A stretch of DNA of 64,000 nucleotides from Terriglobia bacterium. GTDB taxonomy: Bacteria > Acidobacteriota > Terriglobia > 2-12-FULL-54-10. Shown one piece after another: positions 9,688-62,555 of the stretch. The stretch spans positions 378,244-442,243 of the forward strand of contig CAXVYR010000002.1 in NCBI GenBank assembly GCA_963666975.2. Reading direction: 5' to 3'. The position numbers were made by a program, and so were the translations under genes. The stretch's first letter is position 1; the number at the start of each line of letters is the position of its first letter. The notes beneath the pieces are model-generated. The model ran no database searches. It was not told the origin of the DNA and saw only the letters and a list, made by a program, of their open reading frames with translations.

Positions 9688-10434
9688 TCACACTGCTAAG
9701 AAAGGCTCTGCAACCAAAAGCAGGCGGTAGGGCCATCGCCGCTGGATCATGCAGTTGCGCAATCCAGCACGGCTTGCAGTTTGCAATAATTCTTGCTTGC
9801 GGAATGCCTGTTCAAACGAGACCAGACCGTCAATGCGGCTCATGGCGCAGGTTGTAAAGAAAGGATTGAACAAGCGGAAGAAATAGTAGGGAACAGGGTG
9901 TCTTTCCAGGTCACTGACGATTAAGGCGCGGCGTGCCCAACGGCTCATCATCCGCAAAAGTTCGACGGCTTGATCCTCAGGAAGGTGATGTAAAAAATGA
10001 GAACAAGTAACGAAATCAAAGGCTCGATCTGGCACGGGCGCGTGAAATGCGTCGGCGGAGAAAGGGTGCAACTTGGGATATGCCGCGAGTTCATCCCGAA
10101 ACAGCGCGAGATATCTGTGCCAGTATTCCAACGCAAAGACTTCCGCTTCGAGGCCCTGCTGTTGCGCCCATCTCAGGATGGCAAATGGCAGGTCGCAGGA
10201 GCCGCTGGCAATATCCAGGACGCTGAACCGGGTCAGTTGATGGCGGCTCACTTGACCTTCCAAAACTTCCAGCAAAAGTTTTTGACTTCCAAAGATCCTG
10301 TTGATGCGACGGATGTCTAACAAATTCCGTCGCACCTCCTCATCGGGCATATTCCCGGCATCGATCAGTTCCGGGCGCAAAACTCGCGAAGAGAAATCAG
10401 GCAATTTGAGGTGGAGGGCCGAAGCCTGTCGCAT
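9688..10434 (-). CDS. Class I SAM-dependent methyltransferase (type III PKS partner)
   Basis: VLDIASGSCD motif I, FDFVTCSHFLHH and DLERH; lies 12 bp downstream of the PKS. Confidence 0.88.
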   Translation of the reverse strand: MRQASALHLKLPDFSSRVLRPELIDAGNMPDEEVRRNLLDIRRINRIFGSQKLLLEVLEGQVSRHQLTRFSVLDIASGSCDLPFAILRWAQQQGLEAEVFALEYWHRYLALFRDELAAYPKLHPFSADAFHAPVPDRAFDFVTCSHFLHHLPEDQAVELLRMMSRWARRALIVSDLERHPVPYYFFRLFNPFFTTCAMSRIDGLVSFEQAFRKQELLQTASRAGLRNCMIQRRWPYRLLLVAEPFLAV

Positions 10435-10446
10435 TGCTGCTGCTCC

Positions 10447-11481
10447 TTACCACTCTAGCAAGGCTACCTCAGCCGCAAGGCCAGGACCCAGGGCTAGTAA
10501 AACCCCCCGATCACCCACGCGAGCGGAATCCGTTTCCAGGACATCGTTGAGCACAAATAGAACTGTGGGAGACGACATATTCCCGTAGTTCCGCAGGATT
10601 CGACGGGAAACGGCCAAGTCGGCGTCGCTGAGTCTGAGCGCATCCTGAACCCGGTCAATTACCTTCCGGCCGCCCGGATGGATCAACCAGTGACGGATAT
10701 CTTTACGGCTGAGCCCTTGGGGGCATAGCAACTCGTCGAGCACACGGTCAATGAGGGGAGGAGCCAGGTCAGGGATAGTAGGGGCGAGGATGAGGCGCAG
10801 GCGTCCGTCTCGTTGTTCAAAACCTACAGAACTCTGGCAGCTTGTGTCCAGCCAGGAAGCGAAGCGGACGATGCGTGGGCCGGTATCCCCCCGACAAGTC
10901 AGCAAGCAGGCAACCGCGCCGTCCGAGCAGATGGCATTGCCCACCAACGTCTCCAGTGTATCGTCAATGTAATATGCAGCGGAGCAAATCTCCACCGCCA
11001 CCACCAGCACTCTGTGATCCGGATAGGCCAGGGCATGGTCATAGGCGCGCTGCAGCGTCGGAAGGGCTCCGGCACATCCCAGACCCAATAAAGCTCCTCG
11101 TTGCACGCTTCGCGGTAGCCGCATCTCCTTAACCAGGATCGTGGCGAGGTCCGGGCAGAGATAACCTGTGCAGGAGCAAACCAGGATGCAATCGATCTCT
11201 TCAACGCCCAAGCCCGCCTTTGCTAGGCAGCGCTGCGCCGCCTGCCGGGCAATGAGTACCGCGCCTTCTTTATAACGGCTGTGCATTTCGTCCGGGCTCT
11301 CGTTTACCGTTCCAATCAGGGGATCCATGTAAAGGTAACGATAGTCAATGTCGCTGTTGAAAAAGATCTCGCGCGCAATCGGCCGGGTATATCCTGCCAG
11401 CCGCAACACCTCTTGCTGAGTAAAGCGCTGCGGTGGAACGGCCGTCGCCACCGATACGATGTGCGGCTCTGGTTTATTCAT
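10447..11481 (-). CDS. Type III polyketide synthase (chalcone/stilbene synthase family)
   Basis: Catalytic Cys-His-Asn in LGCAGA, WLIHPGG and YGNMSS; ends in ALGPGLAAE. Confidence 0.93.
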   Translation of the reverse strand: MNKPEPHIVSVATAVPPQRFTQQEVLRLAGYTRPIAREIFFNSDIDYRYLYMDPLIGTVNESPDEMHSRYKEGAVLIARQAAQRCLAKAGLGVEEIDCILVCSCTGYLCPDLATILVKEMRLPRSVQRGALLGLGCAGALPTLQRAYDHALAYPDHRVLVVAVEICSAAYYIDDTLETLVGNAICSDGAVACLLTCRGDTGPRIVRFASWLDTSCQSSVGFEQRDGRLRLILAPTIPDLAPPLIDRVLDELLCPQGLSRKDIRHWLIHPGGRKVIDRVQDALRLSDADLAVSRRILRNYGNMSSPTVLFVLNDVLETDSARVGDRGVLLALGPGLAAEVALLEW

Positions 11482-11987: not shown

Positions 11988-13176
11988 TCAGTTCGGTCTT
12001 GCTGTGCTCGAAATCTGCCGATGCTCGTTAGCCTGGCGGTCGAGCTTGGACAGCGCTTCCCGCATCATGTTGAGCTTCGCCTGGCTGTAGCGCTTGAATA
12101 CCGCCGAGTCTCCCTGCCGAAGCATTTGGGTGACAAAATGGTCCGCCACACCCCCGGCACTCAGCCGGGTCGCAAACGTATGGCGCAACTCGTATATCGT
12201 GAAATACGGTACGCCAGCACGCCGCAGTGTCGCGGCCCAAATCTTCTTCAGTGATCTGATGTATGGCCTGCTGGATTTTTGGCGTGGCGTCGGGAACAGA
12301 TACTCGCTTGCCTGCGTCGCTTCGATCTGTGCTTGGAACGCCCGGTAGGCCAAATCCGAAATCGGCGTCTCGCCTACCCCGTTTGGAGTCTTGGAGTCCG
12401 GGATGTAGACCACCCGGTTTTCCATATCCACCTGCAATTTCTTCATGGGCATCAGCTCTTTGTAGGGACGTAGCCCCGTCTCAACGAGAATGACGATAGC
12501 GTTACGCAGGTAATCGGGCGCAGAAAACTCAACCCGCTGCTGCTCGCTGGCCGTCATGTAGTGAGGCTTTCTGGTTGCGCTCCGTAATTGAATCGGGAAT
12601 TCAACCGCACTACAGGGGTTCGTATGCAAACATTTTTTCTTCACCGCGACATTCAGAATCCGCCTTAATATGCGGAATTCCTGGTGCACGGTGGCCGGCT
12701 TGAGCTTTCCCACAAGCCGGGTCCCTAACTTCGTGCGTACCCTCCTTCCTGAGCACAAGCGCCGATCGATGTAATCCTCAATCGCCTCTGCGGTAACTTC
12801 CGTTAAGGGACTTTCACCGAATGCAGGTCGCAGAAACTTGAGGGCATTGATATTTTCCGCGTGTGTCTTTTCCGAGCGGAATGGAGGCTTGGAACGTTTC
12901 CCAGCGATCTCCTCGCCCGTCTTCTTCCAGAAACCAATCAGCCCATTGGTTAAAGGTTAGTTTCTTGCCGGCCAAAATGGCTGGCAACCTTCCCTCGTCC
13001 CTGGCATCCAACCGGTCTCGTAGAAGGCGGTTTGCTTCTTGTGTATCTGCGGTTCCGGTCGATTCCCTCTGAAGCTTTCCTTCTCGGTCCCGGTACCGCA
13101 TCCACCAAAACGCGGAACCATTGCGTTGGAAGATGTTCCCTCCTCCGCTCTTCGGTCTTCCTCTCCTATTGTTCAT
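11988..13176 (-). pseudogene. int: Tyrosine recombinase/integrase disrupted by a 25-bp insertion (12900-12924)
   Basis: Catalytic ETGLR, SKT and YELRHTFATRL motifs, with an arm-binding N-terminus (IFQRNGSAFWWMRY). Removing 12900-12924 restores WFLEKRSKPPFRSEKTHAENINALKFLRPAFG in frame. Confidence 0.88.
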
Positions 13177-13474
13177 CGATTCCTCCATTGACATGAAATT
13201 GCTGGAGCCACTCGACCAGCTCCGACAGTCGGAAGCGGATCGAGCGGCCCATCATGCGGTAATGGGGAATCTGCTTTCGCTCGACGTAAGCATACACCAG
13301 CGAGGGGCTGACACCCAGGAATTGGGCAGCGTCCTTCACCGTGATGGGGGCATCTGTCGCTTTTCCATCCAGGCTCATCGTTCCCTCCCTACTCTCCTCG
13401 TCAACGTCCCGGTCGGGTTCCCGGTCGAAGTCCTCAAGGGTCTTTATCCGTATGATTTGTTCTTCATCCCTCAT
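13166..13474 (-). CDS. Excisionase-like HTH DNA-binding protein (Xis/RDF)
   Basis: ITVKDAAQFLGVSPSLVYAYVERKQIPHYRMMGRSIRFRLSEL; overlaps the integrase start. Alternative start at 13378. Confidence 0.85.
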   Translation of the reverse strand: MRDEEQIIRIKTLEDFDREPDRDVDEESREGTMSLDGKATDAPITVKDAAQFLGVSPSLVYAYVERKQIPHYRMMGRSIRFRLSELVEWLQQFHVNGGIDEQ

Positions 13475-14423: not shown

Positions 14424-16429
14424 ATCTTCCCCTGGCCCTTCGCCTTCCAGTAGGGGAGCGTCCGGGGCAGGTAGTGCGGCTTGAGGTACACACGTGTCGG
14501 CGCAAGCGACTGAGCGCCGTCGTAAGGCAGACAGATAGCCTGACAGTTGGAGAGCAGGGCAAACTCGCGGGGCTGGAATACCGCCTCGCGCTGCTCCCGG
14601 AAGGATTTGCTGGCCCCTACGCTGCCTTGCCCGCCTCCGGCCTGGGCCGAGAGCAGGGACACCTCGCTTTGCTTGGCCGATTCGGTGATAGTGTAGGAGG
14701 GCTTGATCTTGGCAACCTGGCCGCATAGAGCCGAGGCGGTTTGAGCAGAAGCATCGTCGCTCAAGGAAAGGAAGATCCGGGTGCGCAGTGTCTGCAACAG
14801 GGTGCGCCATGCTTCCGAGCTGCCGAGTACAGAGCGCAGCGAAGAAATAGATTAGGTGGCGACAATCGGGATGCAACGGCATTGCCGGGTGAGGGCAAAG
14901 GATTTCTCGTCACCGCTCGGATCGTCCTCGCCCACGGAAGCGAAAGACTGGTATTCGTCGCAGATGAACAAGGCCGGCCGCCGCAGAAGCGATTGCAGCC
15001 AGGCGTTTTTGAGCATTACGCCTACAGCGCGGGACAGGGCCGGATTGGTTCCGGCGGGCATGTTCAAGGCCAGCACCTTGCCCGACTCGATCAGCTCATC
15101 GAGGGGTGGCAAGCTCTGACGCACTTTCAACCCAAGTCCAGGCGGTACGAAACTGTGGGGGTCGTCGGGGTCGTCTTTGACGTGCTGCGCCGGGGCTTGC
15201 TCTTTGGGCTTTGGCGGACAGAACACTCTCGCCACGTCCGGCAGGTCGAATATGGAAAGGAAAACGGATATTCCCTCCACTATGCTCGACCGGATTTTGT
15301 TGTCGATCATTCCCCAGTCGTGTTGATACCAGCGATTGACGGCTTCGACTCGATGGCGGATTTCTTCGCCAACCATGCTCTCGCTCCACTCAATTTCGTA
15401 TTTGATATTGAGTTGTTCAAGTCGGGCTTCAAGCGCAGGATTGAGGGCTGTGCGACAGGTTGCTTCTTCTACGTTTTCTCGCCATTTCCAGTCTTTCAGT
15501 GAGTGCATGTTGGGCAAGTAATCTTTGCCGTCCATCACAATTGTTCCCTCTCTCCGCTGCCGGACATACGCCTCGGCTGCCTTGATTTTGGCCTCGAACA
15601 GTTCCTTGTCGATGGCGCAGTGATAGACCTGCCGAAGTGTGACCCACTGGTCGGGTAAGACCCGGTAAAGTTCGATGATCCAGCGGACCAGATTGGTGTA
15701 AGCCTGTTGCCAGAACGGCTCCTTGCCCTTGCCGAATAATTGATTGAGTAGGGATGAAACGGTGTAGGCCAGCGAGTAGGAATCGAGCCAGGTTGCCGAG
15801 AGTGGATTCCACTGCCAGCGGCCATCCATGCCCAGCTCGATATAGTCATCTTCCCGTCCGGCATCGGCCAGGATTTTCCGGATGTCATGGCAGAAATCGC
15901 CTTTGACTTCCAGCACCAGAGCCGCCGCCCGGAGCTTGGGCTCCTTCGCCTGCCAGGACAAGATTTGCTGTGCGAAAGGGTGCATACAAGCTGAGGTTTT
16001 GCCGGACCCGACAGCGCCGAATATTGCCACTCCGGTGTACAGTCCGCGCTCCGGGATTACGAGCCATTTTGGGTTCGGGATTTCGACAGCTTTGACCGGG
16101 TGGTGAACCTCCCCGACAACGATGCCCGGCCCGGCGTCTTTTTTGGGAGAAAGGGGCCAATCGGGCAGCACTTTGTAGGAGGGTAGATGGTCCTCCATTT
16201 TCTCAAACCAGACGTGGTAGACCGTGTTGATAATCAGCCCGCCGACAACGACTGCGACGGCGGGCGCGACGTAATACCAGCGGACAACCCAGATGTAGAA
16301 GTTGGGAGTGTGGTAGAGCAGCAAATCGAGCAGCGGTTCCTCGCCGGGCATGGGAAAAGGCCGGTAGATGAAACCCCAAGCGGAGCAGCAAAGCCCTCCA
16401 AAGATGAGGACCGGATAGCGCCATTTCAT
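14420..16429 (-). pseudogene. virD4: Type IV coupling protein (VirD4/TraD-like) with an in-frame TAA at 14852-14854
   Basis: Two N-terminal TM segments, Walker A GAVGSGKT, EVKGD and Walker B FICDEYQ. It reads PIVAT*SISSL where VATQS is expected, and the same frame continues to 14420. Confidence 0.87.
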
Positions 16430-16478
16430 GGGGTTTTCCTCCGGCGCGTTTGGCGCCCGCGTGTGGTCTGTGTCCGAA

Positions 16479-16885
16479 GCCTTCCCGCAGGGATAAATTG
16501 GACGGAAGCGACCCCCAAAGGTGGGATACAGGCCATGTAACATGGCCTGTAACTAGCCCACCCCCCTGCGCGCCGCACCAGCGGCAAAAAGGGGGGGGTC
16601 GCTATCGTCCTGCTCGTTCCGGCTGGTGCGGCCCGCGCTGTCCGGTCTACAGCACCCAAGTAACTGCATAGATGCAAGATAGCAAAATGAGCCGTGTAAC
16701 TAGCTCTAGTCGATTTCTGTAACAAGCCCCCCCCTGAGCTAGTTACAAGCTGGTGCGACCCGACCCCCGACCCCAGAACGCACAAATAACGGGCCAGCAG
16801 TCCACCGCTCATGTCACCGCTTCCAGGGACTCCATTTTGCGGTTTACAGGTCCACATCCAGCATCCTCAAACGGCTCGAAACCCA
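16479..16885. promoter_or_regulatory. Structured non-coding module, copy 1 (TGTAAC type); putative oriT/origin
   Basis: 17-bp outer stem 16500-16516/16594-16610, perfect hairpin acaggccatg-taa-catggcctgt, and gccgc-acca-gcggc hairpin. TGTAAC at 16536, 16548, 16695, 16718 and inverted at 16742. Homologous to 61223-61613. Confidence 0.65.
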
Positions 16886-17813
16886 TATCTCGTAGCTGTC
16901 AATCGAGGCTTCTGATTCCACCTTCGATTTGGGAAGTTTTTGCAGTGTCATATATTTGTTTGAGATTTTAGTAAGCCCGCCGTACTTCGCCATAAATCAT
17001 TTTGTCCATGTTGATAATCGCTTTCTCGATCAACTGCATTTCAGCTTTCACGTCCGGGTCGTCCTGGGTCTGCCCTTCCACTATTTGTTCAACTTGTTTA
17101 CCCGCTCCCTTGCTCCACCGTTTCAGCGCCGTCTCGGAGCGTATTGTGTCGTCAAAGTCCAAGCCGATTGCTACCACCTGAACCTTGATGCCTTTCCCCC
17201 GCAAAGCCCTCCAAAGCCACTCGTGCGCCGCGCCCCAAGAGCGCAGTTCGGTGTCGGTGGTATTGCCCGGATCAATGTAAGCGAAGGTGGCGGATTTGGC
17301 ATCGCAAGCGATGGGCAGTTTGAGGGCAAAGTAGCGGGTTTGTTTCCTCACGGCTCCGTGATAGGTGCGGCGGGGAATCCGGTTACGGTCGATGCCTAGC
17401 AGATCAAAGAAAGCGACCTTTTCCTGCTCGGTGGGAAGCCAGGGAAGTTCAGGGTGTTCCAGAACGTAATCGAGCGAGAGCAACCGCCGGAGAAGCAAGG
17501 AATCTTCCGCCTCCCGGCGGTGCCGGACGTTCTCAATTCCAAGCTCCCGGTAGATCGGTTTATGAGAAATCCGGCAACCCCTCGCCACGCCGTTACTGTT
17601 GGGTAGATCAAACTCCACGGCAAGGCCGCGCTCCACAAGATCGCGCACAAAGCGCATGGCCCGGTTCCTCGCGGCACCCTCGAAGAAATGACAGAATTGC
17701 GGCCTCGTGAAAGCGCCGCTGTGGAGACAGACCAGGGCAACCCATTCCGCCTCTCGGCCAGTCAAGCCGAACGGCTTTAGCTTCTTTTCTCGTTCAAGGA
17801 GATGAGCAATCAT
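16844..17813 (-). CDS. Uncharacterised wHTH-containing ICE protein; probable +1 frameshift near 16995 truncates the C-terminus (track ORF ends at 16968)
   Basis: N-terminal HTH-like region (FTRPQF..F...RAMRFVRDLVERG). The alternative frame KYGGLTKISNKYMTLQKLPK...IDSYEIWVSSRL matches the degraded paralog at 61.6 kb (TYGGVEAISDRLMELKDLPK...IDGF..WVSSRV). Confidence 0.75.
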
Positions 17814-17815
17814 TA

Positions 17816-18480
17816 CTACCCGCCGGACACCATAGCCCGGTCGCCTCGAAGGTAGGTGACGATGATTCCCATAGGATTGAAAATCATCAATTCGGTCGGG
17901 ACTGCCTCAAGGAATATGAATTGCAGGGAGAGCGACCAGCGTTCGCGCTCGGTCTCGACCGCATTCACCAGCCGCACGAGGTCGAAGTCGGCGGTGGCGC
18001 CGTGGGGTTCCTGTTGGTTGGCTTGAATCCGCAAGACAACCCGCTCGACCTGTTGTTCCTCTCTTGTGCCTCCCGCCGCCAGCATGGCGATATTCTGGCC
18101 TTCGGCCCGGAAGGCTTCGTTGGCTAGCCCGGTGGTCAGAAAGCGGAGACTGCGGGGCCAAGCCTGCTCGACCGTGGCCCGCCTCCGGGAGTAGTAGTCG
18201 TCGATGAAGCGGTTCAGAAAATACTTGGTGGTGGGGTCCAGCGGATCGGACTGTGCCTCGACCGTCTCATAGGCCAGCGCCTCGGCCCGGCCTACCTCGT
18301 CCACGCGCACGACGATGGGCCGGGGCGCTTCAACCGATGACAGCCGGATGATGATGATTATCAGCAAAAGGCAGAGTCCGGCCAAGCCCATCGACAGAAC
18401 CCTCAAGTGCCGGTTGGAGTGGATTGCCTCTCCCCAGATCTCGGCGTAGGTCTTTGCGGTTTCGTCTTCTCTTTGCTCAT
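17816..18480 (-). CDS. virB8: VirB8/TrbF T4SS component; likely true start 18480 with a -1 frameshift near 18461
   Basis: Single TM, PIVVRVDEVGRA, KYFLNRFI and NPMGIIVT. An ATG with a GGGGAA RBS 8 nt after the VirB6 stop is out of frame with the gene body by one missing A. Confidence 0.82.
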
Positions 18481-18488
18481 AGTTCCCC

Positions 18489-19484
18489 CTACCCGGCCAG
18501 CTTGGCGGCTCCACCCGCTGCCGAAGTTCCGCCACTTGCTGCCGCCATTCCTGCTCCCGTAAGTCCGGAGCTGGTGACGGCTTGGCCGGAGACCAGCATG
18601 GAAGCCAGCTCCCCGACTTTCAGGGAGGCCAATATCCCGGCCACAAACAGGGGCAGGATTATCAATACCCACCCCGCCATGGTGACCAAATCGAAGTCAA
18701 GGGTCTGGTTGGAAAAGGTAGTCACATAGCCCAGCCCGACACCCATGAAAACCCGCATGACGGCTCCGGCCAGGGCGCCGTAGAGGCTGAAAGTTATCAA
18801 GGATCGGAACCAGCCCCAGAACAGAAACGACAGCGGCTCAAACAGCAGCCAGGGGATGAAGATCGGCCCCAGGAAGATGAGGATTGCAATTGCAATCTGC
18901 GCCCAGATCACCTGTGCGTAGGTGACGGCATACAGGATGACGAGCATACATCCCGTGAAAATCACCATAATGGTGGCCGTCGCCAGAGTAATCAGCGCCC
19001 TACCGCTGGAAGTGATTAGTTCCCATATGTTGTAGCCATCCCAGGCATCGGTGATGCGGGTCATGTGGGTATTCACCATGTTGGACAATTCGGTTCTCAT
19101 GGCCGTTCCGGAGTCGGCCATGAAAAATTCCATCAACCAGTTTCCGCCGCCCACAATCATCCCTGGAAAGGTGTAAGCGTTTGCCGGAACAGGCAGCGGG
19201 GTGTCGTAGAAGTGCAGCATGGCCCAGGGAACCCAAAGGGCGATCACGAGCCTGATTAACTCCCACGGCTGGAAGCTGCCGGACATGGCAATCTTCACCC
19301 CGGTCCAGACAACCATGATGGCGGCCAGCCCGGTCCAGAGGTCTTGTCCGGCGGTCAGCAAGATCGGCCCGCTGGTTCCGATAATGTTGTTCATCACCCC
19401 TTGCAGGAAGCCGCCGAAGTCGTCCAGCTGCGCCGGGGGGATGTTGGTTGGAACACTGGGGTCGAGTTGAATCTGAAACAACAA
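18489..19484 (-). CDS. virB6: VirB6/TrbL polytopic T4SS membrane protein
   Basis: Multiple TM segments, LGPIFIPWLLFEPLSFLFWGW, and a Gly/Ala-rich tail. Confidence 0.88.
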   Translation of the reverse strand: MLFQIQLDPSVPTNIPPAQLDDFGGFLQGVMNNIIGTSGPILLTAGQDLWTGLAAIMVVWTGVKIAMSGSFQPWELIRLVIALWVPWAMLHFYDTPLPVPANAYTFPGMIVGGGNWLMEFFMADSGTAMRTELSNMVNTHMTRITDAWDGYNIWELITSSGRALITLATATIMVIFTGCMLVILYAVTYAQVIWAQIAIAILIFLGPIFIPWLLFEPLSFLFWGWFRSLITFSLYGALAGAVMRVFMGVGLGYVTTFSNQTLDFDLVTMAGWVLIILPLFVAGILASLKVGELASMLVSGQAVTSSGLTGAGMAAASGGTSAAGGAAKLAG

Positions 19485-19512
19485 AGGCTAGCCTTCCGGG
19501 ACCGCCACCAGA

Positions 19513-20409
19513 TTAAGGGGTATACAGGGGATGCACCTGCATACGGAGACTTGCGCCGCCGTCGCTGCGTGAGGTAATCCCGTCCAGCCGTTCCTGGAAT
19601 ATCTGCTGGCCTCGTGCAGTGGCTTCCATCAAGGCAGCCTCGCGCTCCCGCCGCCTCGCTTCTGCTTCCAGTTCCGCCGCCGCCACCTGCGCCGCTTGGA
19701 GTGCTTGCAACTGCGCCATTGCGGCTGTTAGCTGTCCCTGTGTGACCATTCCGGCGACCTGAGATTGCTGTAGCGCGGTGTCGGATTTGTTAGCGTTGTT
19801 CCGCAGCCCGTTGTAGGAATCGAGCGCGGATTTGATAGCCGCCGAAGTCTCTGCGGCGGCATCGGAAACGGCATAGTTGAGGACGGTGGACTGCTCGCCG
19901 CGCTCCCGGTTGTTGCGGTAGTTCGCGGCGGCTCTGGTTGCCAGCTCCACCGGAAAGTTTGCGTAGGTTGCCAGCACGTCCGCCTCGCTCGTGGTGTCGG
20001 CAGTTTGCAGCCGGGTCCGCATGGCCTGGGTGATTGATGTGCCATCGCTGAACTGCTCAACCGCCGTCGCCAGCTCACCGGCAGCGCCGCTAAAATCGGA
20101 TTTCCAGGCCATGCCTGTCCCGATGAGCTTGCTGGGGACCGAAGCCAGATCGGTGAACGGTTGGGTGATGGCTCCAATCTGTCCTAAAGTGCTTTCCCTG
20201 ATGTGCTCGAATTGCTCCGTCAGCTTGCCAAGCTGGTTGCTCATAGATGTGAGCTGCGCCATCTGGTTGCCGATCATCGTTATCTGATTTGCCATCATGA
20301 TGATTCTCTGTGATATCGCCGTGGGGTCGGTGGTGGGGAAAAAAGCCAACGCCGACACTGCCGTAAACAGGGGCAGGAAAAACAGAGCCAGCCAAGTTCG
20401 GACTTTCAT
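19513..20409 (-). CDS. VirB5/TrbJ-like secreted T4SS protein
   Basis: Signal peptide, PTTDP followed by a Gln/Met-rich coiled coil (NQITMIGNQMAQL), and position upstream of VirB6. Confidence 0.65.
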   Translation of the reverse strand: MKVRTWLALFFLPLFTAVSALAFFPTTDPTAISQRIIMMANQITMIGNQMAQLTSMSNQLGKLTEQFEHIRESTLGQIGAITQPFTDLASVPSKLIGTGMAWKSDFSGAAGELATAVEQFSDGTSITQAMRTRLQTADTTSEADVLATYANFPVELATRAAANYRNNRERGEQSTVLNYAVSDAAAETSAAIKSALDSYNGLRNNANKSDTALQQSQVAGMVTQGQLTAAMAQLQALQAAQVAAAELEAEARRREREAALMEATARGQQIFQERLDGITSRSDGGASLRMQVHPLYTP

Positions 20410-21791
20410 GGTTTGTCTCCTTTCAAGGTTGTGGTTCCCCGGCCCGTGGGCCGGGGAACAAGTGCGTCGGAAGTGAACCAGATTCGTAGCCGGTGTCCGG
20501 CGCGAATCGTGAGAGTGGGTAAACGATTCAGAAAGCGCTGCAAGATTTGCTGTGCGCCCTGTCCGAGCCCTTGCCCGGCTCCGGCCCGGATCGCTGGCGC
20601 ACCGCCAGAATAGGGGTTCGCTCCTTGCAAGGTCAGCCCGGAGATAACTCCGACTGCTCCGACCGCCGCAAACATGGAGAGGTAATGGCGGTTCACCTGA
20701 TCTTTCAATGCACTCTCTCCGACCTGATTGAGTCCGGCAAAATCGAGCGCAACCCAGCGACCGTCGGGAAATATCAAGCGATGGAAGCCCACTACAAGCC
20801 GCTCTTGGTCAATGCCCCGCACCGAAGTCGCCGTGCCAATGACTCTCGATCCACGGGGGACAAGAATCCGCTGCCGGTCGGCGGAGTAAAACGGAACCGA
20901 CACCGCCGCCAGCACCGGGCCGGGAAGTCTGTTGAAGTCGCCTGAAAGCTGAGTGACCATCACCGCCTCCAGAAACGAGCCTTCATAGATTCGCTCGAAG
21001 CCGGGCGGGTCTGCGGGCGCGACGCTCGATGTAGGATTCTCGTAGTCCTTTCGCGTTGCGCCGGTAAGCGCCTCCGCCGCCGCGCCCAGGCCGGGTAGGG
21101 GCAACTCCCCTTCATGCTCGCCCGGCGCTGTCTGGGATTCGGCTGCTTCCGCATCAGCGACAACTTGACTGAGCATATCAAGCGACTGTTGCAAGGCTTG
21201 ATTGACTGCCGCTGGCGGTTGGAAGTTCTGCGCGGTTGGAGTACCAGGAGTCCCCGGCGCTTCACCGCCCTCCGCCGCTGCTTGCGACGGCGGCGGCTCG
21301 CTCACTGTACGGTAGGTCTGCGCCACCGGCGCTGACCGCAGTGAGCGGTTGCGCCGTTCGATCTCTTCCAAGCGCAATACCTCTCTCAGCTCCGCCTCGG
21401 CCTGGCTCGACGGCACAATCGGATCTCCGCCGATGACGCCGCTCGGCAAAAGCGAAGCGGTTGCGCTGGGGGTGTAAATGCCGCCCGCCTGCTGCTGTTG
21501 CAGTTCCCTCTCCGCCGCTTGCCGTTGGGCCTCCTGCCGCAACCCTTCCTCGCGGACCCTCGCCGCAACCTGCGCTTGCGCTCCGGGTCCTGCCGGTTGT
21601 TGCGAGCCCGAATCCGCTACTTCGACTTCCTCCGGCGCGGTATTGAAAACAGACTGCATCACCAGAAAGAGGCCGAGCACCACGGCGATTCCCGCCACCC
21701 CCCATCGGGTGAGTTTCTGGATCGGCACGGCTCCGGTAGCCTTGTCGTGCAGCCGTTTCCATTGGTTCTGAATCTGGTTCTGTGGGTTCAT
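20406..21791 (-). CDS. virB10: VirB10/TrbI T4SS core protein
   Basis: TM segment, Pro/Ala linker, EGSFLEAVM, ILVPRGSRVIG, DQVNRHY and PTLTIRAG; ATGA overlap with VirB9. Confidence 0.9.
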   Translation of the reverse strand: MNPQNQIQNQWKRLHDKATGAVPIQKLTRWGVAGIAVVLGLFLVMQSVFNTAPEEVEVADSGSQQPAGPGAQAQVAARVREEGLRQEAQRQAAERELQQQQAGGIYTPSATASLLPSGVIGGDPIVPSSQAEAELREVLRLEEIERRNRSLRSAPVAQTYRTVSEPPPSQAAAEGGEAPGTPGTPTAQNFQPPAAVNQALQQSLDMLSQVVADAEAAESQTAPGEHEGELPLPGLGAAAEALTGATRKDYENPTSSVAPADPPGFERIYEGSFLEAVMVTQLSGDFNRLPGPVLAAVSVPFYSADRQRILVPRGSRVIGTATSVRGIDQERLVVGFHRLIFPDGRWVALDFAGLNQVGESALKDQVNRHYLSMFAAVGAVGVISGLTLQGANPYSGGAPAIRAGAGQGLGQGAQQILQRFLNRLPTLTIRAGHRLRIWFTSDALVPRPTGRGTTTLKGDKP

Positions 21792-22687
21792 GGTTCCAGC
21801 TCCCGCCTGTCGAGCTTCCACTGAGCCTTTTCCTTGCCGATTTGCAGCCAGCCGTCGCCTAACAGATGCCGGGCGACATAAAGGCCGTCCTCGTTGAGGT
21901 CGTAGGCTACCAGCGCGGGCTTGCCTTCTTTGATTTCATAGAGCGCCGGGGACTCCTGGGCGTTGGAGCGCAGATAGGTAAATTGGCCGTCGTGCCACAT
22001 GCCTTCGACCAGGAAGGGCCATTTGAGGGCTTTGTCTTGCAGACGGTAAGGGAATTTCAACCGCGTGGGATAGTCGGCCCGGAAAGAGTTGATCTCCGCC
22101 TCGGCCTGTTGCCGTACCGTGTCGATCTGCTGCTCCGCTTCGGCCTGCGCCGCTCCGGCGGTCATTCGCGCCTGCTCCGCCATCTGTTGATAGGCTTCCA
22201 CCTGATCGCGGGCCACAAAGGCGGGCTGATGCGCTCCGGGTGATATCCTCGGATCGCTCTCGGCCGCACTGGCGATGCGAACGACAAGATGCGGTTGTCC
22301 GGGCTGCTCGGAGACAAGGAAGGAATAGATTCTCCCGGATTCGCAAACCAGGGCGACGTTGGTGCTGACGCCCTCGCTGATCGGTTTCAAGAAAGCGAGA
22401 TTGGCCGCTCCGGTCAAGTGCCAATACTCGGAGTCACCCACTACGAAATCGAGAATGTTCTCTCGTCCCGGAAGTTGAATAACGGTGGTGTGGCGTACTC
22501 TGGTCCGCAAGCGGATGATCTGGTCCGGGTTGTCGCCGACCCGAATCACTGACGGCTCCGCCGCCGGTGTTTCCTGCTCGGCAGGAGTGGGGCGGGGAGC
22601 TGCCGCTGCTTCTGGTATTTCCTGCGCGGTGGTGGTGATGGGTATTGCCGTCAGCAATATCAGAACGGCCAGGGTGATGAGTTTCAT
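21788..22687 (-). CDS. virB9: VirB9/TrbG T4SS outer core protein
   Basis: Signal peptide, HTTVIQLP, VGDSEYW, LAFLKP, HDGQFTYL and PALY. Confidence 0.88.
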   Translation of the reverse strand: MKLITLAVLILLTAIPITTTAQEIPEAAAAPRPTPAEQETPAAEPSVIRVGDNPDQIIRLRTRVRHTTVIQLPGRENILDFVVGDSEYWHLTGAANLAFLKPISEGVSTNVALVCESGRIYSFLVSEQPGQPHLVVRIASAAESDPRISPGAHQPAFVARDQVEAYQQMAEQARMTAGAAQAEAEQQIDTVRQQAEAEINSFRADYPTRLKFPYRLQDKALKWPFLVEGMWHDGQFTYLRSNAQESPALYEIKEGKPALVAYDLNEDGLYVARHLLGDGWLQIGKEKAQWKLDRRELEP

Positions 22688-22691
22688 GGTG

Positions 22692-25151
22692 TTACCTCCG
22701 TTTGTTTGACAAGTGTTCGAGCGCACCCTCCAGGCCATACCGCTCTACCGCCTCGGCCCGCTCCTGAGCATCGCGGGCCGAGCTGGTATAGAGCCAGTAG
22801 CTTTCAGGGTCCACTTCCAGTCGTAGCTTTCCCGCCGCTTCCGGTCGCCGCATATACAGCTCCCGTTTGGGAATCAAACCGCGTATGGTGGCTACCTCGG
22901 ACGGATTCAGGCGAAAGATGTCTGCCGCCTTGTCCGGCAGTTCCGGGTTGGCAAGAAATAGTTTGGTCGGCATGGATTCGAGCAGTACGTCGGCTCCGGC
23001 AGTTCCGGTCACGTCCACGGCGCTTTGAGTCGCCATAATCAGCGCCGCGTTCTTCTTCCGCCAGGTCTTGGCTGCCTCGGCCAGATAACCCAGCACCGCC
23101 GGATCACGGAGATAACGCCAGGCTTCATCCACCACCATGAGCTTGACCCTCTCCGTCTCGGCTGGATTCTCCAGCGCCAGCCGCAGCCGTTCCAGAAGAT
23201 AGAACAGCGCCGCCTCGCAGAGGTCCTCATGCTCGGCTGCTCCGGCCAGGTCGATCACCTGCCATTCGGCCAGTTCGAGGTCCGTCCCGCTAGCCGGGTT
23301 GTCGAAGTATTTGCCCCAAGCGCCCTCGCCGTGCCAGCGCCCTAGCGCGGGCCACATCTTGGAGGGCAAGGAATGTACCAGCACACTCAAGGTCCGCCGA
23401 TCCGGCGGGAATGAGTACACGTCCTCGATGCGGGCGCGGATTTCACTGGGGTCTTCTCCGCTCACCTGCCAGCCGCCGATCCGTAGCAGGCGCGTAATCC
23501 AGCCGGTTAAAAACTGATATGTCCGCTCTCCTGCCGGTAGCGCGAAGGGGCGCAACCGAAAGCCGCCCTCTCCGGCGTCGTCGTCGGGTGAAAGTTCGAG
23601 ATACCCGCCTCCCAGAAAGCGGGTGAGCCAGCGGTACGAGCCCCCGAGGTCCAGAATGAGCACGCGCGGGTTGTACTGCAGGGCTTGGACAAGCAAAAAG
23701 TTGAGCGTGAAGCTCTTTCCCGCTCCGGTCGCCCCTAGCACTAGCGTGTGGCCCACGTCGCCGTGAAACAGATCGTAGTAGTAGGGAGTTCTCCACTGCG
23801 TTTCCAGAATAGCCAGCGCGTCCCGCTGCAAGTGGCCGCTCCGTGGGTTGCCACTCGGTGGCCCGAATATCGGCGCCATGCAAGCCGCCGCGCCCGCCGA
23901 AAGAAAGACGGATCGGACCTGCCGCTTTCTGGGCTGCGCCGGAAAGCGGCAGAACCATGTGGCCAGCTGGCCGTAGCCTTCCCGGATCGCTTTGGCATCG
24001 TGGGCCGCAAAGATGCGGCGAATATCTCCGTCCAGCCGTTCGGTCTGCTCCAGCTCTCCATGTAGGGCGATGGTAAGTGCCATGTCGCCGTAGGCGATTC
24101 CCTCCGTCTCCAACTCCACCAGGGCGTGACCCAAGCGACTCGATTCCACTTCGGCGGCGCTGTCTACCATTGCCGAAGCGGTTCCCTCGGTTTCCTGCAC
24201 GTGCGCCATCATGGAGTACCGCTTTGAGAAGTAATGGCGCTGCGCCCCGCGAATCTTGCGCCGGGCAGAATCGAGGCCCCACGGTCGCCATTCCAGGGCC
24301 ACGGTCATGGTGGCATCGAGCCGGTACAGATCGTTCAGAAGGTTGGCCTGCGCTCCGCTGGGGGGCGAGAGCAGCGAGTACAGAATGACCGGCTCGCCGT
24401 CCAGCCGCAGATGCCTCCGCTCGGCCTCCAACTCGCTGCGGGACAGCCGCCAGTTCATGCCGCTGCCGGTGGCACCCTCCCAGCCGCCGCCGGGGCGGCC
24501 GGGTCGGCCGGGTCGGCCGGGTCGATTGATGAGTTCGCTCAAGACGGCTGATCCAGCATCGGCGTCGAGCAGTTCCACCGGCGTCAAGTCCGATACCAGG
24601 GCGCATGACGCATCGACCAGTTGGCGGAAGCGCGTGGCGGCGGCTTCTATTTCGGTGAGTAGATAGACTGATTCGTGAGGGTTGCGCCGCCGTGCCAGCC
24701 AGTTCTGTAGGTAGGACTTCCACCATGCCTGATCCGACCGGCCTTTCGAGGCGGATGAAAGGTGAGGATCGTAGGTCCAGGCAATGTAGGTCTGGATTTC
24801 CTGAACGCGGCTGCTCAGAAAAGCCCGCCGCTTCCGCTGCGAGATGGCGGCAACGGTGGATTGCTCTCCCTGCTCTCCGGGGTCGAAGTGGCTGGCCCGT
24901 CGAAACAGATAGAAGTAAATGCGCGTCCGGGAATCGGCCCCGGAAAGCATACGCTGCCAGCGATTCAGCACCGCGTCCATCTGTTCAGGGGTTCGCCCGT
25001 CCAGGACGGCGGGCGTGAGCCGCGCCAAGCAAAGCAGCTCACCGGCGCGGGTCAGGCAGGTTCGCCCGTCATCCAGCCAGCCCCAATAGGGGATTTCCTC
25101 GGCCAGCGCCCCGGCAGCTTGATAGTCGGCTACTTCTTGATCCACATTCAT
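22692..25151 (-). CDS. virB4: VirB4/TrbE T4SS ATPase
   Basis: GHTLVLGATGAGKS Walker A, LDLGGSY, VVDEAW Walker B and RKKNAALIMATQS; ATGA overlap with VirB3. Confidence 0.93.
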   Translation of the reverse strand: MNVDQEVADYQAAGALAEEIPYWGWLDDGRTCLTRAGELLCLARLTPAVLDGRTPEQMDAVLNRWQRMLSGADSRTRIYFYLFRRASHFDPGEQGEQSTVAAISQRKRRAFLSSRVQEIQTYIAWTYDPHLSSASKGRSDQAWWKSYLQNWLARRRNPHESVYLLTEIEAAATRFRQLVDASCALVSDLTPVELLDADAGSAVLSELINRPGRPGRPGRPGGGWEGATGSGMNWRLSRSELEAERRHLRLDGEPVILYSLLSPPSGAQANLLNDLYRLDATMTVALEWRPWGLDSARRKIRGAQRHYFSKRYSMMAHVQETEGTASAMVDSAAEVESSRLGHALVELETEGIAYGDMALTIALHGELEQTERLDGDIRRIFAAHDAKAIREGYGQLATWFCRFPAQPRKRQVRSVFLSAGAAACMAPIFGPPSGNPRSGHLQRDALAILETQWRTPYYYDLFHGDVGHTLVLGATGAGKSFTLNFLLVQALQYNPRVLILDLGGSYRWLTRFLGGGYLELSPDDDAGEGGFRLRPFALPAGERTYQFLTGWITRLLRIGGWQVSGEDPSEIRARIEDVYSFPPDRRTLSVLVHSLPSKMWPALGRWHGEGAWGKYFDNPASGTDLELAEWQVIDLAGAAEHEDLCEAALFYLLERLRLALENPAETERVKLMVVDEAWRYLRDPAVLGYLAEAAKTWRKKNAALIMATQSAVDVTGTAGADVLLESMPTKLFLANPELPDKAADIFRLNPSEVATIRGLIPKRELYMRRPEAAGKLRLEVDPESYWLYTSSARDAQERAEAVERYGLEGALEHLSNKRR

Positions 25152-25450
25152 AAGCGTCCTCGGATTAGCAGATACCAGGGGGAGTCGGCCCACTTGCCGG
25201 GATCGTAGCGGGCTTTGAAGCGGGTCGAAGCGCGCAGGATTTCCACCATGTTGGGGTCCTCGCGCCAAGCAAACCAGCCAGCGGCATAGAGCGCCACAAA
25301 TATCACGCCGCCGGTCATCAGGGAGTTGATGGCGTTCCACATTGCCAGCCCCAACATGGCGCTGAGTAGAAACCAGCGGCGCTCCACGCCCATGATGGTG
25401 AGCGGCGCACTCAAGGCCGGATAAGCAGGCCAGTTCTTTGCGCCCTGCAT
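25148..25450 (-). CDS. virB3: VirB3/TrbD T4SS membrane protein
   Basis: ALSAPLTIMGVER, two TM segments and DP motif; lies between the pilin and VirB4. Confidence 0.85.
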   Translation of the reverse strand: MQGAKNWPAYPALSAPLTIMGVERRWFLLSAMLGLAMWNAINSLMTGGVIFVALYAAGWFAWREDPNMVEILRASTRFKARYDPGKWADSPWYLLIRGRL

Positions 25451-25746
25451 CAGAACAGCCAGGTCAGGAAATTGGCCGCGCCCATCGCCATGCCTAATCC
25501 GAAGATGATCCCGGCCAGCGCCTTCTTGCTGCCGCCTTCGCCGAACGCGAACATCAGCCCGCCGATCACAATAGAAATCAGGCTTAACCCTCGTGCGAGG
25601 GGTCCGGTGAAAGCGTTTTCCAGCACGTCAATTGCATCCAGCCACGGACTTACGCCCTGGGCTGGAAGCTCCTGCTGCATGAGCAGCCCCATGCCTGCCA
25701 TTAGCGCCGCTGCGCGTAATTTCGGAATCGGAAACCGTGAAGTCAT
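25450..25746 (-). CDS. virB2: VirB2/TrbC pilin
   Basis: SPW...FTGPLARGLSLISIVIGGLMFAFGE with two hydrophobic helices. Confidence 0.9.
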   Translation of the reverse strand: MTSRFPIPKLRAAALMAGMGLLMQQELPAQGVSPWLDAIDVLENAFTGPLARGLSLISIVIGGLMFAFGEGGSKKALAGIIFGLGMAMGAANFLTWLF

Positions 25747-26095: not shown

Positions 26096-27016
26096 TCAAA
26101 GCTCCATTGCTCCGTCTCGACCGCCTCTTGCGGCTCCGCCGCTGCCGTCTCCGCCGCCGCCTCGACCTGCTCCGCCGAGCGCCCGGCTGATCGCGGCGTT
26201 GGCCCGTCCGCCGCTTCCGTGTATCTGAAATCCGGCCTGGGCTTTGGCGGCGATAGTGCCTGAGCGGTAGTGTTCTGAGGCAACCTCGACGTTGACGCGC
26301 CCGCTGCGGCCCTCGACGTCCTGATATTCAATCTGCGCGTCGGGATAGACGACTCGACCCTCTTTGATGGGTAGCTCCAACTCCTGAGCGGCCTTGTGAC
26401 GCGCCGCGTCTGCCGCCGCCTTGCCTTCTTTGGCCCGCGCCGTTTCGGTGGCGCGGGCCACCTGCTTTTTAAGCTCGGCGTCGATCCGCACTCGCTGGAT
26501 ACTCGCCCCTTGTTCCACCAGGCGGCGCTGCTCTATCTGAGCTGCCCGGTAAACGGCGGTGTCGTGTCGTAGTTCGCCCTTCTTGACCAGGCCGGTCCAG
26601 GTTTGCTGTTCCTTGTCGAATCCCTGCTCGACGGCGCACTCCTGCGCTTTGCGCGCTCCGGCCTCGGTCAAGGTAAGCACTTTGTACGTTCCGCCCCTCG
26701 GCCCTTTTGCTTGATGCTCCTGCATGTGGCCGTCTTTTATCATGCGGTCCACGGCCCTTCGCGCCGTGTAGGGATGGCCCCCGAATTGCGACTCCGCCAG
26801 GTCGCGGTAGGAGACGTTGCGATACATCCCCACGTCGGCCAGCGCTCCTTCGCTGCGCTGCTGAAAGCTGCGGTTGTCCTGTCGCGGATCGTACTCGCGG
26901 CGGTGTCCTGTGCGAGGCTGCTCTCGGTCCCGGTCGGTATGCTCCCGTCTCGGGGCAGGGGTAGGCGTCTGACTGCGGCTGTCGTCTCTGGTCAGGATAT
27001 CGAGCGGATCAAACAT
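26096..27016 (-). CDS. Replication-relaxation (Replic_Relax/MOB_C-like) PD-(D/E)XK protein, candidate relaxase
   Basis: wHTH region with LTLTEAG, LRHD motif, and VYPDAQIEY...VNVEV..EHY nuclease-type motif; heads the transfer operon. Confidence 0.65.
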   Translation of the reverse strand: MFDPLDILTRDDSRSQTPTPAPRREHTDRDREQPRTGHRREYDPRQDNRSFQQRSEGALADVGMYRNVSYRDLAESQFGGHPYTARRAVDRMIKDGHMQEHQAKGPRGGTYKVLTLTEAGARKAQECAVEQGFDKEQQTWTGLVKKGELRHDTAVYRAAQIEQRRLVEQGASIQRVRIDAELKKQVARATETARAKEGKAAADAARHKAAQELELPIKEGRVVYPDAQIEYQDVEGRSGRVNVEVASEHYRSGTIAAKAQAGFQIHGSGGRANAAISRALGGAGRGGGGDGSGGAARGGRDGAMEL

Positions 27017-27034: not shown

Positions 27035-28105
27035 CTATCTGTCTGGTCCGGCGTCTCGTTCGTGTTCCTGTGCTTTCGCTTTTGCCTGCGGGCTGGGAGC
27101 GTGGCTGATCTGCGGCCCGGCTTCGTGGGAGTACTTCTGCGCCAGTTCTTCATGCTTCTTTTCTTGTTCGGCTTCGCGTTCTCTCACCGGCTGTACTAGA
27201 TAATCTGATATCTTCTCCGCCTCCGCTGCCGCGTGGTAAATCTCGCGTGGCTCCTTGTTCAGCACCTTGATCCAGTTATCAACGTAGGCCGCGCCGCGTG
27301 AGCCGTCATGGCCTACTCCTAACTTCTGGCCCGTCATCATGGCGCTGATCTCCGCCCGCAGTTCTTCGCGGGCGTAGGCTTCGCTGCCGAAGCCAGCCGC
27401 AACTCCTTCTTGCAGCGATTTGCGATCCAGGCGGCTTTCATGTCCGCTGGCGTGTCCCAGTTCGTGAAGCGCCGTCTGGTAGTAGCCGGTGGCCGAAGCA
27501 AACTGTCCGCGTTCTGGCAGCGTTATTCGATCCGTGTCCAGGCTGTAGCTGGCTTGATCTCCGGGAATGTGGTTGATCTTGACGCCGCTCTCTCGAATCG
27601 CAGTCTCCGCTTTCTCGTGCGCCTGCCACTCCGGCGGGGCTTCCGCCGACCGCTCCGGCAGTTTCAGCCCCTCGGTTTGATCGGCGTTGAACACCGCGTA
27701 CTGCCGCACGACGGGATGGTTGCGTTTGTACTCCTCATAGACCGCCTTGCCGTCCTTGTCCTTCAACGGCTTTCCGCCCTCGTCTTTCGCGGCGATGCGG
27801 GCGCGGTCGGTGTAATACAGCACCTTCGTTCCGCGTTCCCCTTTGCGGACGTGGCCGCCCAGGGCCTCGATCTGCTTGTAGGTTCCCCAGCGGTTGTCGC
27901 TGTGGCCCTGACGGATACCCCTGCTCATCAGGTAAAGGCTGTTGCCGCGTGTGTAGGGTTTCCCGGTCGATAGGTTCTCCGGCATACCTTGCTCCCCCGG
28001 CTTCCACGGTTTCTGCCAGGGTGCCACACCCTTTTTGATCTGCTCTATGAGTTCGTCCGCAACCTGGCGGACGTATTGTTCGGAGCGGTCCTGATTTTTG
28101 GCCAT
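27035..28105 (-). CDS. ardC: ArdC-like antirestriction ssDNA-binding protein with zincin domain
   Basis: PWQKPW, YTRGNSLYL, WGTYKQ, VRKGERG, VFNADQ, LHELGH and YAREELRAEI. Confidence 0.92.
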   Translation of the reverse strand: MAKNQDRSEQYVRQVADELIEQIKKGVAPWQKPWKPGEQGMPENLSTGKPYTRGNSLYLMSRGIRQGHSDNRWGTYKQIEALGGHVRKGERGTKVLYYTDRARIAAKDEGGKPLKDKDGKAVYEEYKRNHPVVRQYAVFNADQTEGLKLPERSAEAPPEWQAHEKAETAIRESGVKINHIPGDQASYSLDTDRITLPERGQFASATGYYQTALHELGHASGHESRLDRKSLQEGVAAGFGSEAYAREELRAEISAMMTGQKLGVGHDGSRGAAYVDNWIKVLNKEPREIYHAAAEAEKISDYLVQPVREREAEQEKKHEELAQKYSHEAGPQISHAPSPQAKAKAQEHERDAGPDR

Positions 28106-34223: not shown

Positions 34224-34640
34224 ACTCCGTGCTGTTCTGACCGGGACGCGGCGCTGGCGGCGCGGTCCTTCCTGGCCCCGGCCCGGCCTGCGGCCGTCGT
34301 GCGGCGCCGCGTCCGCCCGGCAGGTCCGCGGTTGCTGCTTCGCGGCGATGTCGCCAGGGGCCGACGAACGATCCGTGGCTGTCTCCAAATCCCCTGACCT
34401 CCCAGCGGCCGTGTGCCCTGCGCACGCCGCGCCGGCCGGCGCGGTCCGCGCCGCCCTCCACGCGGATGACCGCACACGCACACACCACCCCGCACGATTG
34501 TAGGAAATGTTGTGTTACAATGCTGTCCATAGAAGTAGTTTCTTCGCTCATATAACGCTCATTCGTCGCTATTTAGACGAGATCAGCCAGATATCTGACC
34601 GCATCGGCCCGGCCCAGGCGGCGGGGGCAGGGAGGAACGC

Positions 34641-56540: not shown

Positions 56541-56672
56541 CCCTCCGGTATCCCACAAAACACCCACCCTTGGAATGCTTCATGCGATTGTTTTCCGGCG
56601 GTCTAGTTTCACACCGCCAGGGATCGCCGCTCTCGCGGCGCTTCCTGGTCTAGTTTCTCTCCGGCGCTTACA

Positions 56673-62499: not shown

Positions 62500-62555
62500 G
62501 TCGTCTTCCACGGTTTTCTCCCAATTCTTTCCTTTCGTTGCAATTACACGGTTTT

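Follow-up and report, generated by a model that had tools for sequence, protein, structure and literature searches.

The DNA analysed here, referred to below as the window, is a stretch of 64,000 nucleotides from a Terriglobia bacterium (assembly GCA_963666975.2, contig CAXVYR010000002.1, positions 378,244 to 442,243 of the forward strand), and we investigated a non-coding module that occurs in it twice, together with two genes, X and R, both of which encode winged helix-turn-helix (wHTH) proteins. Copy 1 of the module lies in an integrative conjugative element (ICE) with a VirB-type type IV secretion system (T4SS). Read along the minus strand, this element runs from an ArdC gene (27035-28105) through R, a small membrane protein, VirB2, VirB3, VirB4, VirB9, VirB10, a TrbJ-like protein, VirB6 and VirB8 to X (17813-16845), and X is followed by the module, a VirD4-like coupling protein encoded directly downstream of the module, VirB11, a small open reading frame (ORF), a tyrosine integrase and a tRNA gene. 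Matches to VirB8, VirB6/TrbL, TrbJ-like, VirB10/TrbI, VirB9/CagX, VirB4, VirB3 and VirB2/TrbC make up the T4SS set between R and X, and the T4SS genes of the element appear open. A T4SS cluster adjoining an integrase gene and a tRNA gene bears out the ICE context proposed in the initial annotation of this DNA. No repeat of the tRNA region of at least 16 nt, as a mark of the far end of the ICE, was detected elsewhere in the window. The features are collected in Table 1.

Table 1 Position and character of the module features and of the genes around them in the window
Feature	Position	Strand	Remarks
Module copy 1	16479-16885		non-coding; TGTAAC type
Module copy 2	61223-61613		TGCCAC type; flanked by a degraded X remnant, 61600 to ~62500
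Conserved box GCCTTCCCGCAGGGATAAAT	16479-16498 (copy 1), 61223-61242 (copy 2)		start of each copy
Module end CGGCTCGAAACCCA	16872-16885 and 61600-61613		codes for WVSSR, the flanking gene's tail
Large inverted repeat, three-way junction	16500-16610		arms 16500-16516 and 16594-16610
Inner stem	16520-16525 / 16557-16562		GGTGGG / CCCACC
Sub-hairpin	16530-16548		loop holds TGTAAC (16536); second TGTAAC at 16548
Hairpin	16572-16576 / 16581-16585		GCCGC / GCGGC
Conserved box AGTAACTGC	16659-16667		AACCACA in most relatives
Conserved box GATAGCAAAATGAG	16678-16691
Gene-proximal iteron set	16695-16747		TGTAAC at 16695 and 16718, C8 run 16727-16734, inverted GTTACA 16742-16747
Gene X	16845..17813	-	N-terminal wHTH, hypervariable recognition helix AARNRAM-RFV; broken copy
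Gene R	26096..27016	-	306 aa; wHTH and HD / PD..E motifs; invariant recognition helix
Type IV coupling protein gene, VirD4-like	14852..16429	-	weak Pfam match (TrwB_AAD_bind); NCBIfam match at E 4e-8, under the curated cut-off
VirB-type T4SS genes between R and X	17816..25746	-	Pfam and NCBIfam matches

Alignment over their whole length showed that segments 16479-16885 and 61223-61613 are homologous, sharing GCCTTCCCGCAGGGATAAAT at the start and CGGCTCGAAACCCA at the end, as the initial annotation had claimed. The five-site word code that it described, TGTAAC against TGCCAC on a fixed scaffold, was confirmed in position and spacing. In copy 1 the four direct words and the inverted GTTACA are spaced 12, 147, 23 and 24 nt apart, and in copy 2 TGCCAC at 61281, 61293, 61442 and 61465 and inverted GTGGCA at 61489 are spaced 12, 149, 23 and 24 nt apart, with an additional inverted word at 61520. 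The TGTAAC module contains no TGCCAC, and the TGCCAC module no TGTAAC. From window-wide frequency, 0.08 (TGTAAC) and 0.24 (TGCCAC) words were expected, and 5 and 6 were seen; five of the 13 TGTAAC/GTTACA copies in the window fall within the 407 bp of copy 1. A weaker control, in which any 6-mer of a first-order Markov resample could reach the top count, gave 44/2000 for copy 1 (where the top 6-mer was CGACCC) and 7/2000 for copy 2. Copy 2 is, as judged by eye, closely like the module of locus L014 in another genome.

Two further statements of the annotation stood in part. Both segments do reach the WVSSR-encoding end of a wHTH gene, but this flanking gene is broken in both copies: at copy 1, codon 282 of X is a TAA (16968-16970), and a frameshift follows ahead of the family end WVSSR...DL* at 16845-16847, and X at copy 2 is heavily degraded, with a tandem duplication at ~61612-61800. 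A sixth word site was said to switch along with the others; the two copies do differ there (AGTAACTGC vs AACCACTGC), but in relatives the site is a conserved box, AACCACA, that ignores the iteron type, and we rejected it as an iteron. It and the box at 16678-16691 keep their position across relatives irrespective of iteron type.

Folded as single-stranded DNA (ssDNA), the two copies gave one shared three-way junction (z -6.3 for copy 1 and -9.1 for copy 2), in which a long outer stem surrounds two hairpins and the first word sits in the loop of one enclosed hairpin; the stems named in the annotation were reproduced, the GCCGC-N4-GCGGC hairpin among them; that both copies fold alike thus held. 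The starting box contains a mini-hairpin of its own (TCCC at 16483-16486, loop GCA, GGGA at 16490-16493), and its minus strand, ..TATCCCTGC.., lies immediately 3' of the large inverted repeat. We then compared the first halves of 67 modules from relatives, excluding the atypical-length modules L023, L115 and L116. Many positions of the box were invariant or near-invariant, and its 4-bp mini-hairpin covaries (pair 17/22 is CG in 52 modules and UA in 14). Compensatory double changes occurred in 6 of 15 predicted pairs. In the outer stem, 98.7% of cells were paired, compared with 87.7% after shuffling and at most 55% with the partner slid, and 113 cells showed double changes, compared with 35 in shuffles; none of 500 shuffles reached either value. 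Covariation of the large stem in the regions downstream of X homologues, one of the checks suggested for the module, is therefore present. Only 5 of 1005 cells were G-U, and 7 were C-A/A-C, the wobble of the other strand, among 13 unpaired cells. As G-U is nearly absent, pairing is maintained almost solely by Watson-Crick pairs, which fits DNA (a single-strand hairpin or cruciform) better than RNA.

The module accompanies the X family, as the annotation had supposed. Its box was present downstream of X, with at most 2 mismatches, in 75 of the 92 related loci examined first, and the outer stem in 73 of the 75 box-bearing loci. In remote lineages, where X identity is 31-37%, the core inverted repeat (GAGCGACCCC/GGGGTCGCTC; GGAGCGACCCC...GGGGTCGCTCC) followed X in 7/7 loci; the box was not seen in these 7 loci. 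In two remote loci that were checked, the next genes after the module were a small ORF and one that is coupling-protein-like and contains a Walker A motif. Loci L030 and L033, of remote lineages, have a conserved ORF of ~78-92 aa (MSII.K...) situated after the inverted repeat and ahead of the coupling-protein gene, and it could encode a further relaxosome accessory protein. A second kind of locus has no T4SS. In all three such loci examined in genomes G047 and G023 (L130 and L131 in G047, L132 in G023), X and the module stand right after a 410-aa P4-type integrase with unrelated genes behind, and these integrase-X-module units are candidate mobilisable islands. Most of the G047 units have, by eye, the same outer-stem variant, GGAGGGAGCGAC, as the resident ICE L026. 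Modules of 690-715 nt, about twice the usual length, were observed at L082, L086 and related loci of G077; they contain arrays of at least five GTGAATT-type words and repeated CTGGAACAG units, and apparently arose by internal duplication of the iteron half.

The words, read directly, differ element by element: TGTAAC, TGCCAC, GGAAACA, GGTACA, GTCCCA, TGCCGCA, TGTCACA, TGGAACA and TGTTCCA were found, and longer words (such as TGTGCATTGA, TGCGCAAWG and TGTAATTTG) in another clade. Words in the clade of the window match the frame TGNNNCA. Their sequence varies among relatives on a constant gene-proximal layout of word, ~23 bp, word, C-run and inverted word. Two automatic iteron callers mis-called many loci and served as a guide only; we used a count of the TGNNNCA pattern instead, which is strict, so that variants such as TGTCACT are missed.

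The most variable stretch of the otherwise conserved X protein is the start of its recognition helix (xxRxxAxRFV). Over 18 ICEs with at least 8 word types, entropy was 1.63 in the helix of X and 0.74 in the whole protein; in R, the corresponding values were 0.41 and 0.55, and its helix was essentially GHPYAARRAVDRM in all 18. R was therefore rejected as the reader of the iterons, its helix being invariant over so many word types. To compare helix and word, 172 loci were parsed, of which 81 had helix, box and C-run; in 34 of the 81, a single TGNNNCA triplet occupied at least two gene-proximal sites, and removal of identical proteins left 31 elements as the set for Mantel tests. Results showed that triplet distance followed helix distance when the rest of X was controlled (partial Mantel r 0.567, 0/2000 permutations), and that it did not follow the rest of X when the helix was controlled (r -0.06). 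By these values the gene-proximal word tracks the recognition helix, a point that the annotation had proposed to check. The helix is encoded ~0.8 kb away from the words, and the uncorrelated C-terminal part is what adjoins them; simple linkage is therefore no explanation. Pairings recurred across bacterial orders: ARRN.A. with GAA (4/4), [DE]SKRAH with CCG (4/4), and.DRK[RQ]AL mostly with CCA; by reading of the sequences, an acidic residue at x2 accompanies C at the first variable base. In the genome of the window itself, helix AARNRAM goes with TGTAAC, and SDRKRAL goes with a TGCCAC copy located on another contig, in agreement with the claim of two specificity types in one genome.

X belongs to a very abundant family. 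Full-length members in relatives have 310-326 aa; matches were found in 30 of 101 related genomes, a tally that includes one unpublished genome, often several per genome and at least 24 in one. A profile search gave at least 3982 protein clusters at 90% identity, and neither a Pfam family nor a source name was attached to any of the 120 clusters listed. X matched no Pfam or NCBIfam family; PF13814 was matched by 0/16 members at E <= 10, and a search of the PDB with the X sequence profile gave a single chance match (E 3.3). Searches with X and with R by tblastn found no homologue in 72,556 plasmid records. Relatives come mainly from Terriglobia, Bryobacterales and other Acidobacteriota, and from Longimicrobiales and other Gemmatimonadota, with further ones in single Dehalococcoidia and Gammaproteobacteria metagenome-assembled genomes. 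Some genomes hold multiple full ICEs (10 VirB4 matches in G077, 7 long ones in G044), and G047 has 21 X matches vs 2 VirB4 matches. The element family is widespread in Acidobacteriota and Gemmatimonadota. A literature search at the level of titles and abstract openings gave no paper on the X family or on relaxases of Acidobacteriota ICEs.

We searched the genome of the window (98.9% complete) for PF03432 (MOBP) and PF13814 (Replic_Relax), and neither gave a match; of these two families, then, the genome yielded no standard relaxase. R had no Pfam match at 0.01, and its orthologue in G047 matched PF13814 at E 2.4e-4, below the cut-off. In a profile-profile comparison (hhalign, alignment of 8 proteins), R matched Replic_Relax with a probability of 88% and E 3e-6, and at the level of sequence profiles its wHTH part aligns with the N-terminal region of X as well as with that of R. 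Comparison of X with R by hhalign, and of R with the TraX-like protein of pTEF1 by BLASTP, gave nothing significant. On these profile matches we regard R as a probable distant relative of Replic_Relax/MOBC. PF13814 is the family termed MOBC by CONJscan, according to PMC5357655; PMC3424549 places Replic_Relax among PD-(D/E)XK nucleases and derives its name from reported roles in replication and in relaxation. R is immediately upstream of X in 16 of the 18 copies listed from remote lineages (11 additional matches were unlisted), and with this query no R was found in G059 and G076 among the remote copies listed. In the ICE family of the window, T4SS genes intervene between R and X. With R beside X in remote lineages, and the module and coupling-protein gene after X, the four thus form an old unit.

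The nearest known counterpart is the origin of transfer (oriT) of the pAD1/pAM373-type MOBC plasmids. In pTEF1, which is pAD1-like and typed MOBC, a Replic_Relax gene (PF13814, E 2e-6) adjoins the coupling-protein gene; the ~700 bp that separate the two genes contain an inverted repeat of 142 bp, nested, together with a 12-bp repeat present in 5-6 copies. The module shares with this type its place between a wHTH gene (of Replic_Relax type in the plasmids, possibly so for X) and a coupling-protein gene, and its architecture, in which a nested inverted repeat of large size (~110 bp in the module, 142 bp in pTEF1) is combined with about five short repeats tens of bp off. In pAD1, TraX carries a wHTH at its N-terminus and binds to a set of five direct repeats that lie 70-120 bp away from nic, so that the repeats are a relaxase binding site remote from nic, and no covalent intermediate is known for it or for MOBC relaxases, as stated in PMC12857230. 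There are also differences. X and R are remote relatives at best, X having no PF13814 match and the profile-profile matches being partial, and there are two paralog-like proteins here vs one. The module repeats are 7-mers at 23-24 bp, one of them inverted, with a C-run, whereas those of pAD1-type are tandem 12-bp repeats; they lie on the side of the relaxase gene, not of the coupling-protein gene, and an extra word pair is located inside the inverted repeat. Furthermore, the pAD1-type oriT belongs to Enterococcus pheromone plasmids, whereas the module hosts are Acidobacteriota and Gemmatimonadota ICEs with a VirB-type T4SS.

In F-like plasmids, element-specific sites for accessory proteins, read by TraM and TraY alleles, set the choice of oriT beside a conserved nicking machinery, and the accessory protein provides the link to the coupling protein. 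Those proteins are ribbon-helix-helix and tetrameric TraM, unlike the wHTH here, and no HUH relaxase was found here in a search that covered MOBP only. The box also recalls the nick region of MOBP systems, 5'-(C/T)ATCCTG(C/T)-3' preceded on its 5' side by an inverted repeat (PMC3772185), in that its minus strand reads TATCCCTGC a few bases 3' of the large inverted repeat. However, the box has ATCCCTG, in which one extra C disrupts the required hexamer ATCCTG, and the box is itself a covarying mini-hairpin. With the hexamer disrupted and no PF03432 relaxase in the genome, we rejected a MOBP nick site, and the likeness to the consensus, at most a lead, is probably chance.

Taken together, we consider the module, with moderate confidence, to be a cis-acting DNA-processing site, most likely the oriT, of VirB-type ICEs and of the small integrase-X-module elements. 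The annotation had left the choice between an oriT and a replication origin of an uncharacterised ICE family, and this pair of readings came through the computational tests of ICE context, conservation, covariation and helix-word tracking. We favour the oriT because of the synteny with a coupling-protein gene and a Replic_Relax/MOBC-like gene, the pAD1-like architecture and the stem kept by Watson-Crick pairs only. The module would then have two parts. One is a conserved core, comprising the box and the ~110-bp inverted repeat with its invariant GAGCGACCCC/GGGGTCGCTC centre, predicted to form a three-way ssDNA junction; the other is the set of element-specific words (TGNNNCA in the clade of the window), two direct ~23 bp apart, a C-run and one inverted. 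From the helix-word covariation, X is predicted to bind these words through the N-terminal part of its recognition helix, which would give each element its own address. The conserved core would be handled by the conserved parts of the machinery, with R as the best candidate for the nuclease; alternatively, X may nick and R assist. The complex would then deliver the strand to the coupling protein, the product of the neighbouring gene. The anatomy of the module, its conservation, the covariation of the stem and of helix with word, the synteny and the remote homologies are observed; protein binding, nicking with its strand and site, and transfer are steps that we infer.

A more specific proposal, which we offer tentatively and hold to be clearly less secure than the oriT assignment as such, is that X and R constitute a two-protein relaxosome of an undescribed kind. 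Both proteins would be divergent PD-(D/E)XK offshoots of MOBC; R, with its invariant helix, would recognise and cut the invariant ssDNA core, and a helix code in X (x1-x7 of xxRxxAxRFV vs the middle of TGNNNCA) would address a single element. Such a relaxosome would explain T4SS ICEs that apparently lack a relaxase as well as integrase-X-oriT hitchers.

A number of observations weigh against the oriT interpretation or against the part given to X in it. The Mantel tests used 31 of the 81 parsed elements, those with the word at fewer than two sites being dropped, and two rows (L060 and L148) had a mis-registered helix string. Some pairs break the correspondence: L018 and L070 have a common word and different helices, L085 and L093 as well as L021 and L095 have a common helix and different words, and L143, L153 and L067 deviate from their helix-word groups. 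The claim that all sites switch concertedly holds for both window copies, where the words of the inverted repeat equal the gene-proximal word. Among relatives it does not hold generally: in 27 elements with distinct interiors, first-half and gene-proximal words agreed fully in 9, partially in 2 and not at all in 16 by the strict pattern, and 8 of these 16 had no strict word at all. Likewise, the G047/G023 units of integrase, X and module share one X helix but vary in their first-half words. The modules are mosaics, and the first-half words may be read by something other than the X helix. As to kinship, the alignment of R with Replic_Relax spans only the wHTH to the conserved His; that of X (hhalign probability 40%, E 3e-4, 187 columns) is a weak link, in which YVDPG of X aligns with EVDxG of the family and Y apparently stands in place of the E of the EVD motif. 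None of the five X matches in the own genome (16845-17813, 61600-62500, C4:2402083-2402814, C4:163083-163541 and C3:85022-85249) is full-length and open: one has the nonsense codon and frameshift, one a replaced C-terminus (259 aa), one lacks the N-terminus, and two are short fragments. With all its X copies broken or partial, the window element may be inactive, a fossil. Finally, a word spacing of 23-24 bp is typical of replication iterons too, and all support for oriT function is computational.

That spacing, about two helical turns, with short words tracking a wHTH protein, is, together with the integrase-X-module units, the main argument for a replication origin of the excised element, in which X would initiate replication by binding the iterons and the inverted repeat would serve for unwinding or for single-strand initiation. 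Theta origins of Rep_3-type share with the module the words ~two helical turns apart, the adjacent gene for a winged-helix protein and specificity groups that arise by concerted change; the integrase-X-module units look like elements made of integrase, Rep and ori, and a reported role in replication is part of the name Replic_Relax (PMC3424549). However, the module words are 6-7 nt long in sets of 2+1, unlike the tandem 17-22 bp iterons of known Rep initiators. X matches no Rep family, and in the GC-rich module no long A/T stretch is visible that could be an AT-rich unwinding element. In T4SS clusters it always stands against the coupling-protein gene and is paired with R, and the plasmid records contain no X homologue. 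We consider a replication origin unlikely.

Element-specific transcriptional control, with X as an activator or repressor that acts on itself or on the operon of the coupling protein and VirB11, and with the hairpin between X and the downstream genes as terminator or attenuator, appears still less likely. Covariation of helix and operator is known from repressor specificity groups, the module occupies the 5' region of the coupling-protein gene, and a terminator-like site overlaps one word, but scans for promoters and terminators were at chance level. In the integrase-X-module elements the cargo behind the module is unrelated, so there is no conserved regulated gene. Moreover, a simple operator does not explain a ~110-nt three-way junction, an invariant core, conservation at 31-37% identity and covariation by Watson-Crick pairs only. 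A structured RNA from the operon intergenic region, cis-regulatory or guide-like, whose words pair with each other or with a target, is very improbable: the stem covaries strongly, the region probably lies, judging from gene order, inside a minus-strand polycistronic transcript, and the inverted word could pair with a direct copy, but Rfam gave the tRNA as its sole window match at gathering score and no match at E <= 1 in 16400-16900, G-U pairs are very rare whichever strand is read, the words follow a protein helix, and direct and inverted copies are four vs one. An element of insertion sequence (IS) or guide-RNA type, suggested by the high copy number, was rejected as well, since the copies lie in ICEs or beside integrases and the pairing is DNA-like.

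Other features of the window were recorded along the way. Just beyond ArdC are two giant minus-strand genes, 29532-34481 (1649 aa) and 35711-50905 (5064 aa), rich in internal repeats (72-nt, 675/678-nt and other periods); the 1649-aa product has many leucine-rich repeats and a PKD-like domain, and the giant genes may be ICE cargo. Between them and module copy 2 is a transposase block (54256-57925) made up of a DDE_Tnp_1_4 transposase and an IS21-type pair, in which IstB accompanies a 513-aa transposase that has a Mu-transposase domain at its C-terminus. A stretch downstream of VirB11 (13147-13316) recurs around copy 2 (62557-62726) as an inverted repeat of 170 nt (90%), and more short repeats were found around copy 2 (60402-60582 vs 62495-62945); this area resembles the rearranged remains of a second ICE. 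Close by the tRNA gene at the border of the ICE, on its outer side, the minus strand encodes a chalcone/stilbene synthase-like type III polyketide synthase and a methyltransferase (9688-11481).

X represents a very large unnamed family that is central to conjugative and mobilisable islands of abundant soil and sediment phyla. If the module is an oriT, these islands could be annotated as ICEs or integrative mobilisable elements with defined DNA-processing modules, and mobilisation networks, in the form of hitcher-helper pairs, would become predictable from sequence. The natural helix/word pairs are a ready data set for a wHTH recognition code, and oriT specificity can be tested by swaps. The finding would also broaden the poorly understood MOBC type of relaxase. 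Should the two-protein relaxosome be true, it would supply the DNA processing still missing from the picture of the many T4SS ICEs in Acidobacteriota and Gemmatimonadota that apparently lack a relaxase, and swarms of integrase-X-oriT hitchers would depend on a resident ICE for R and the pore.

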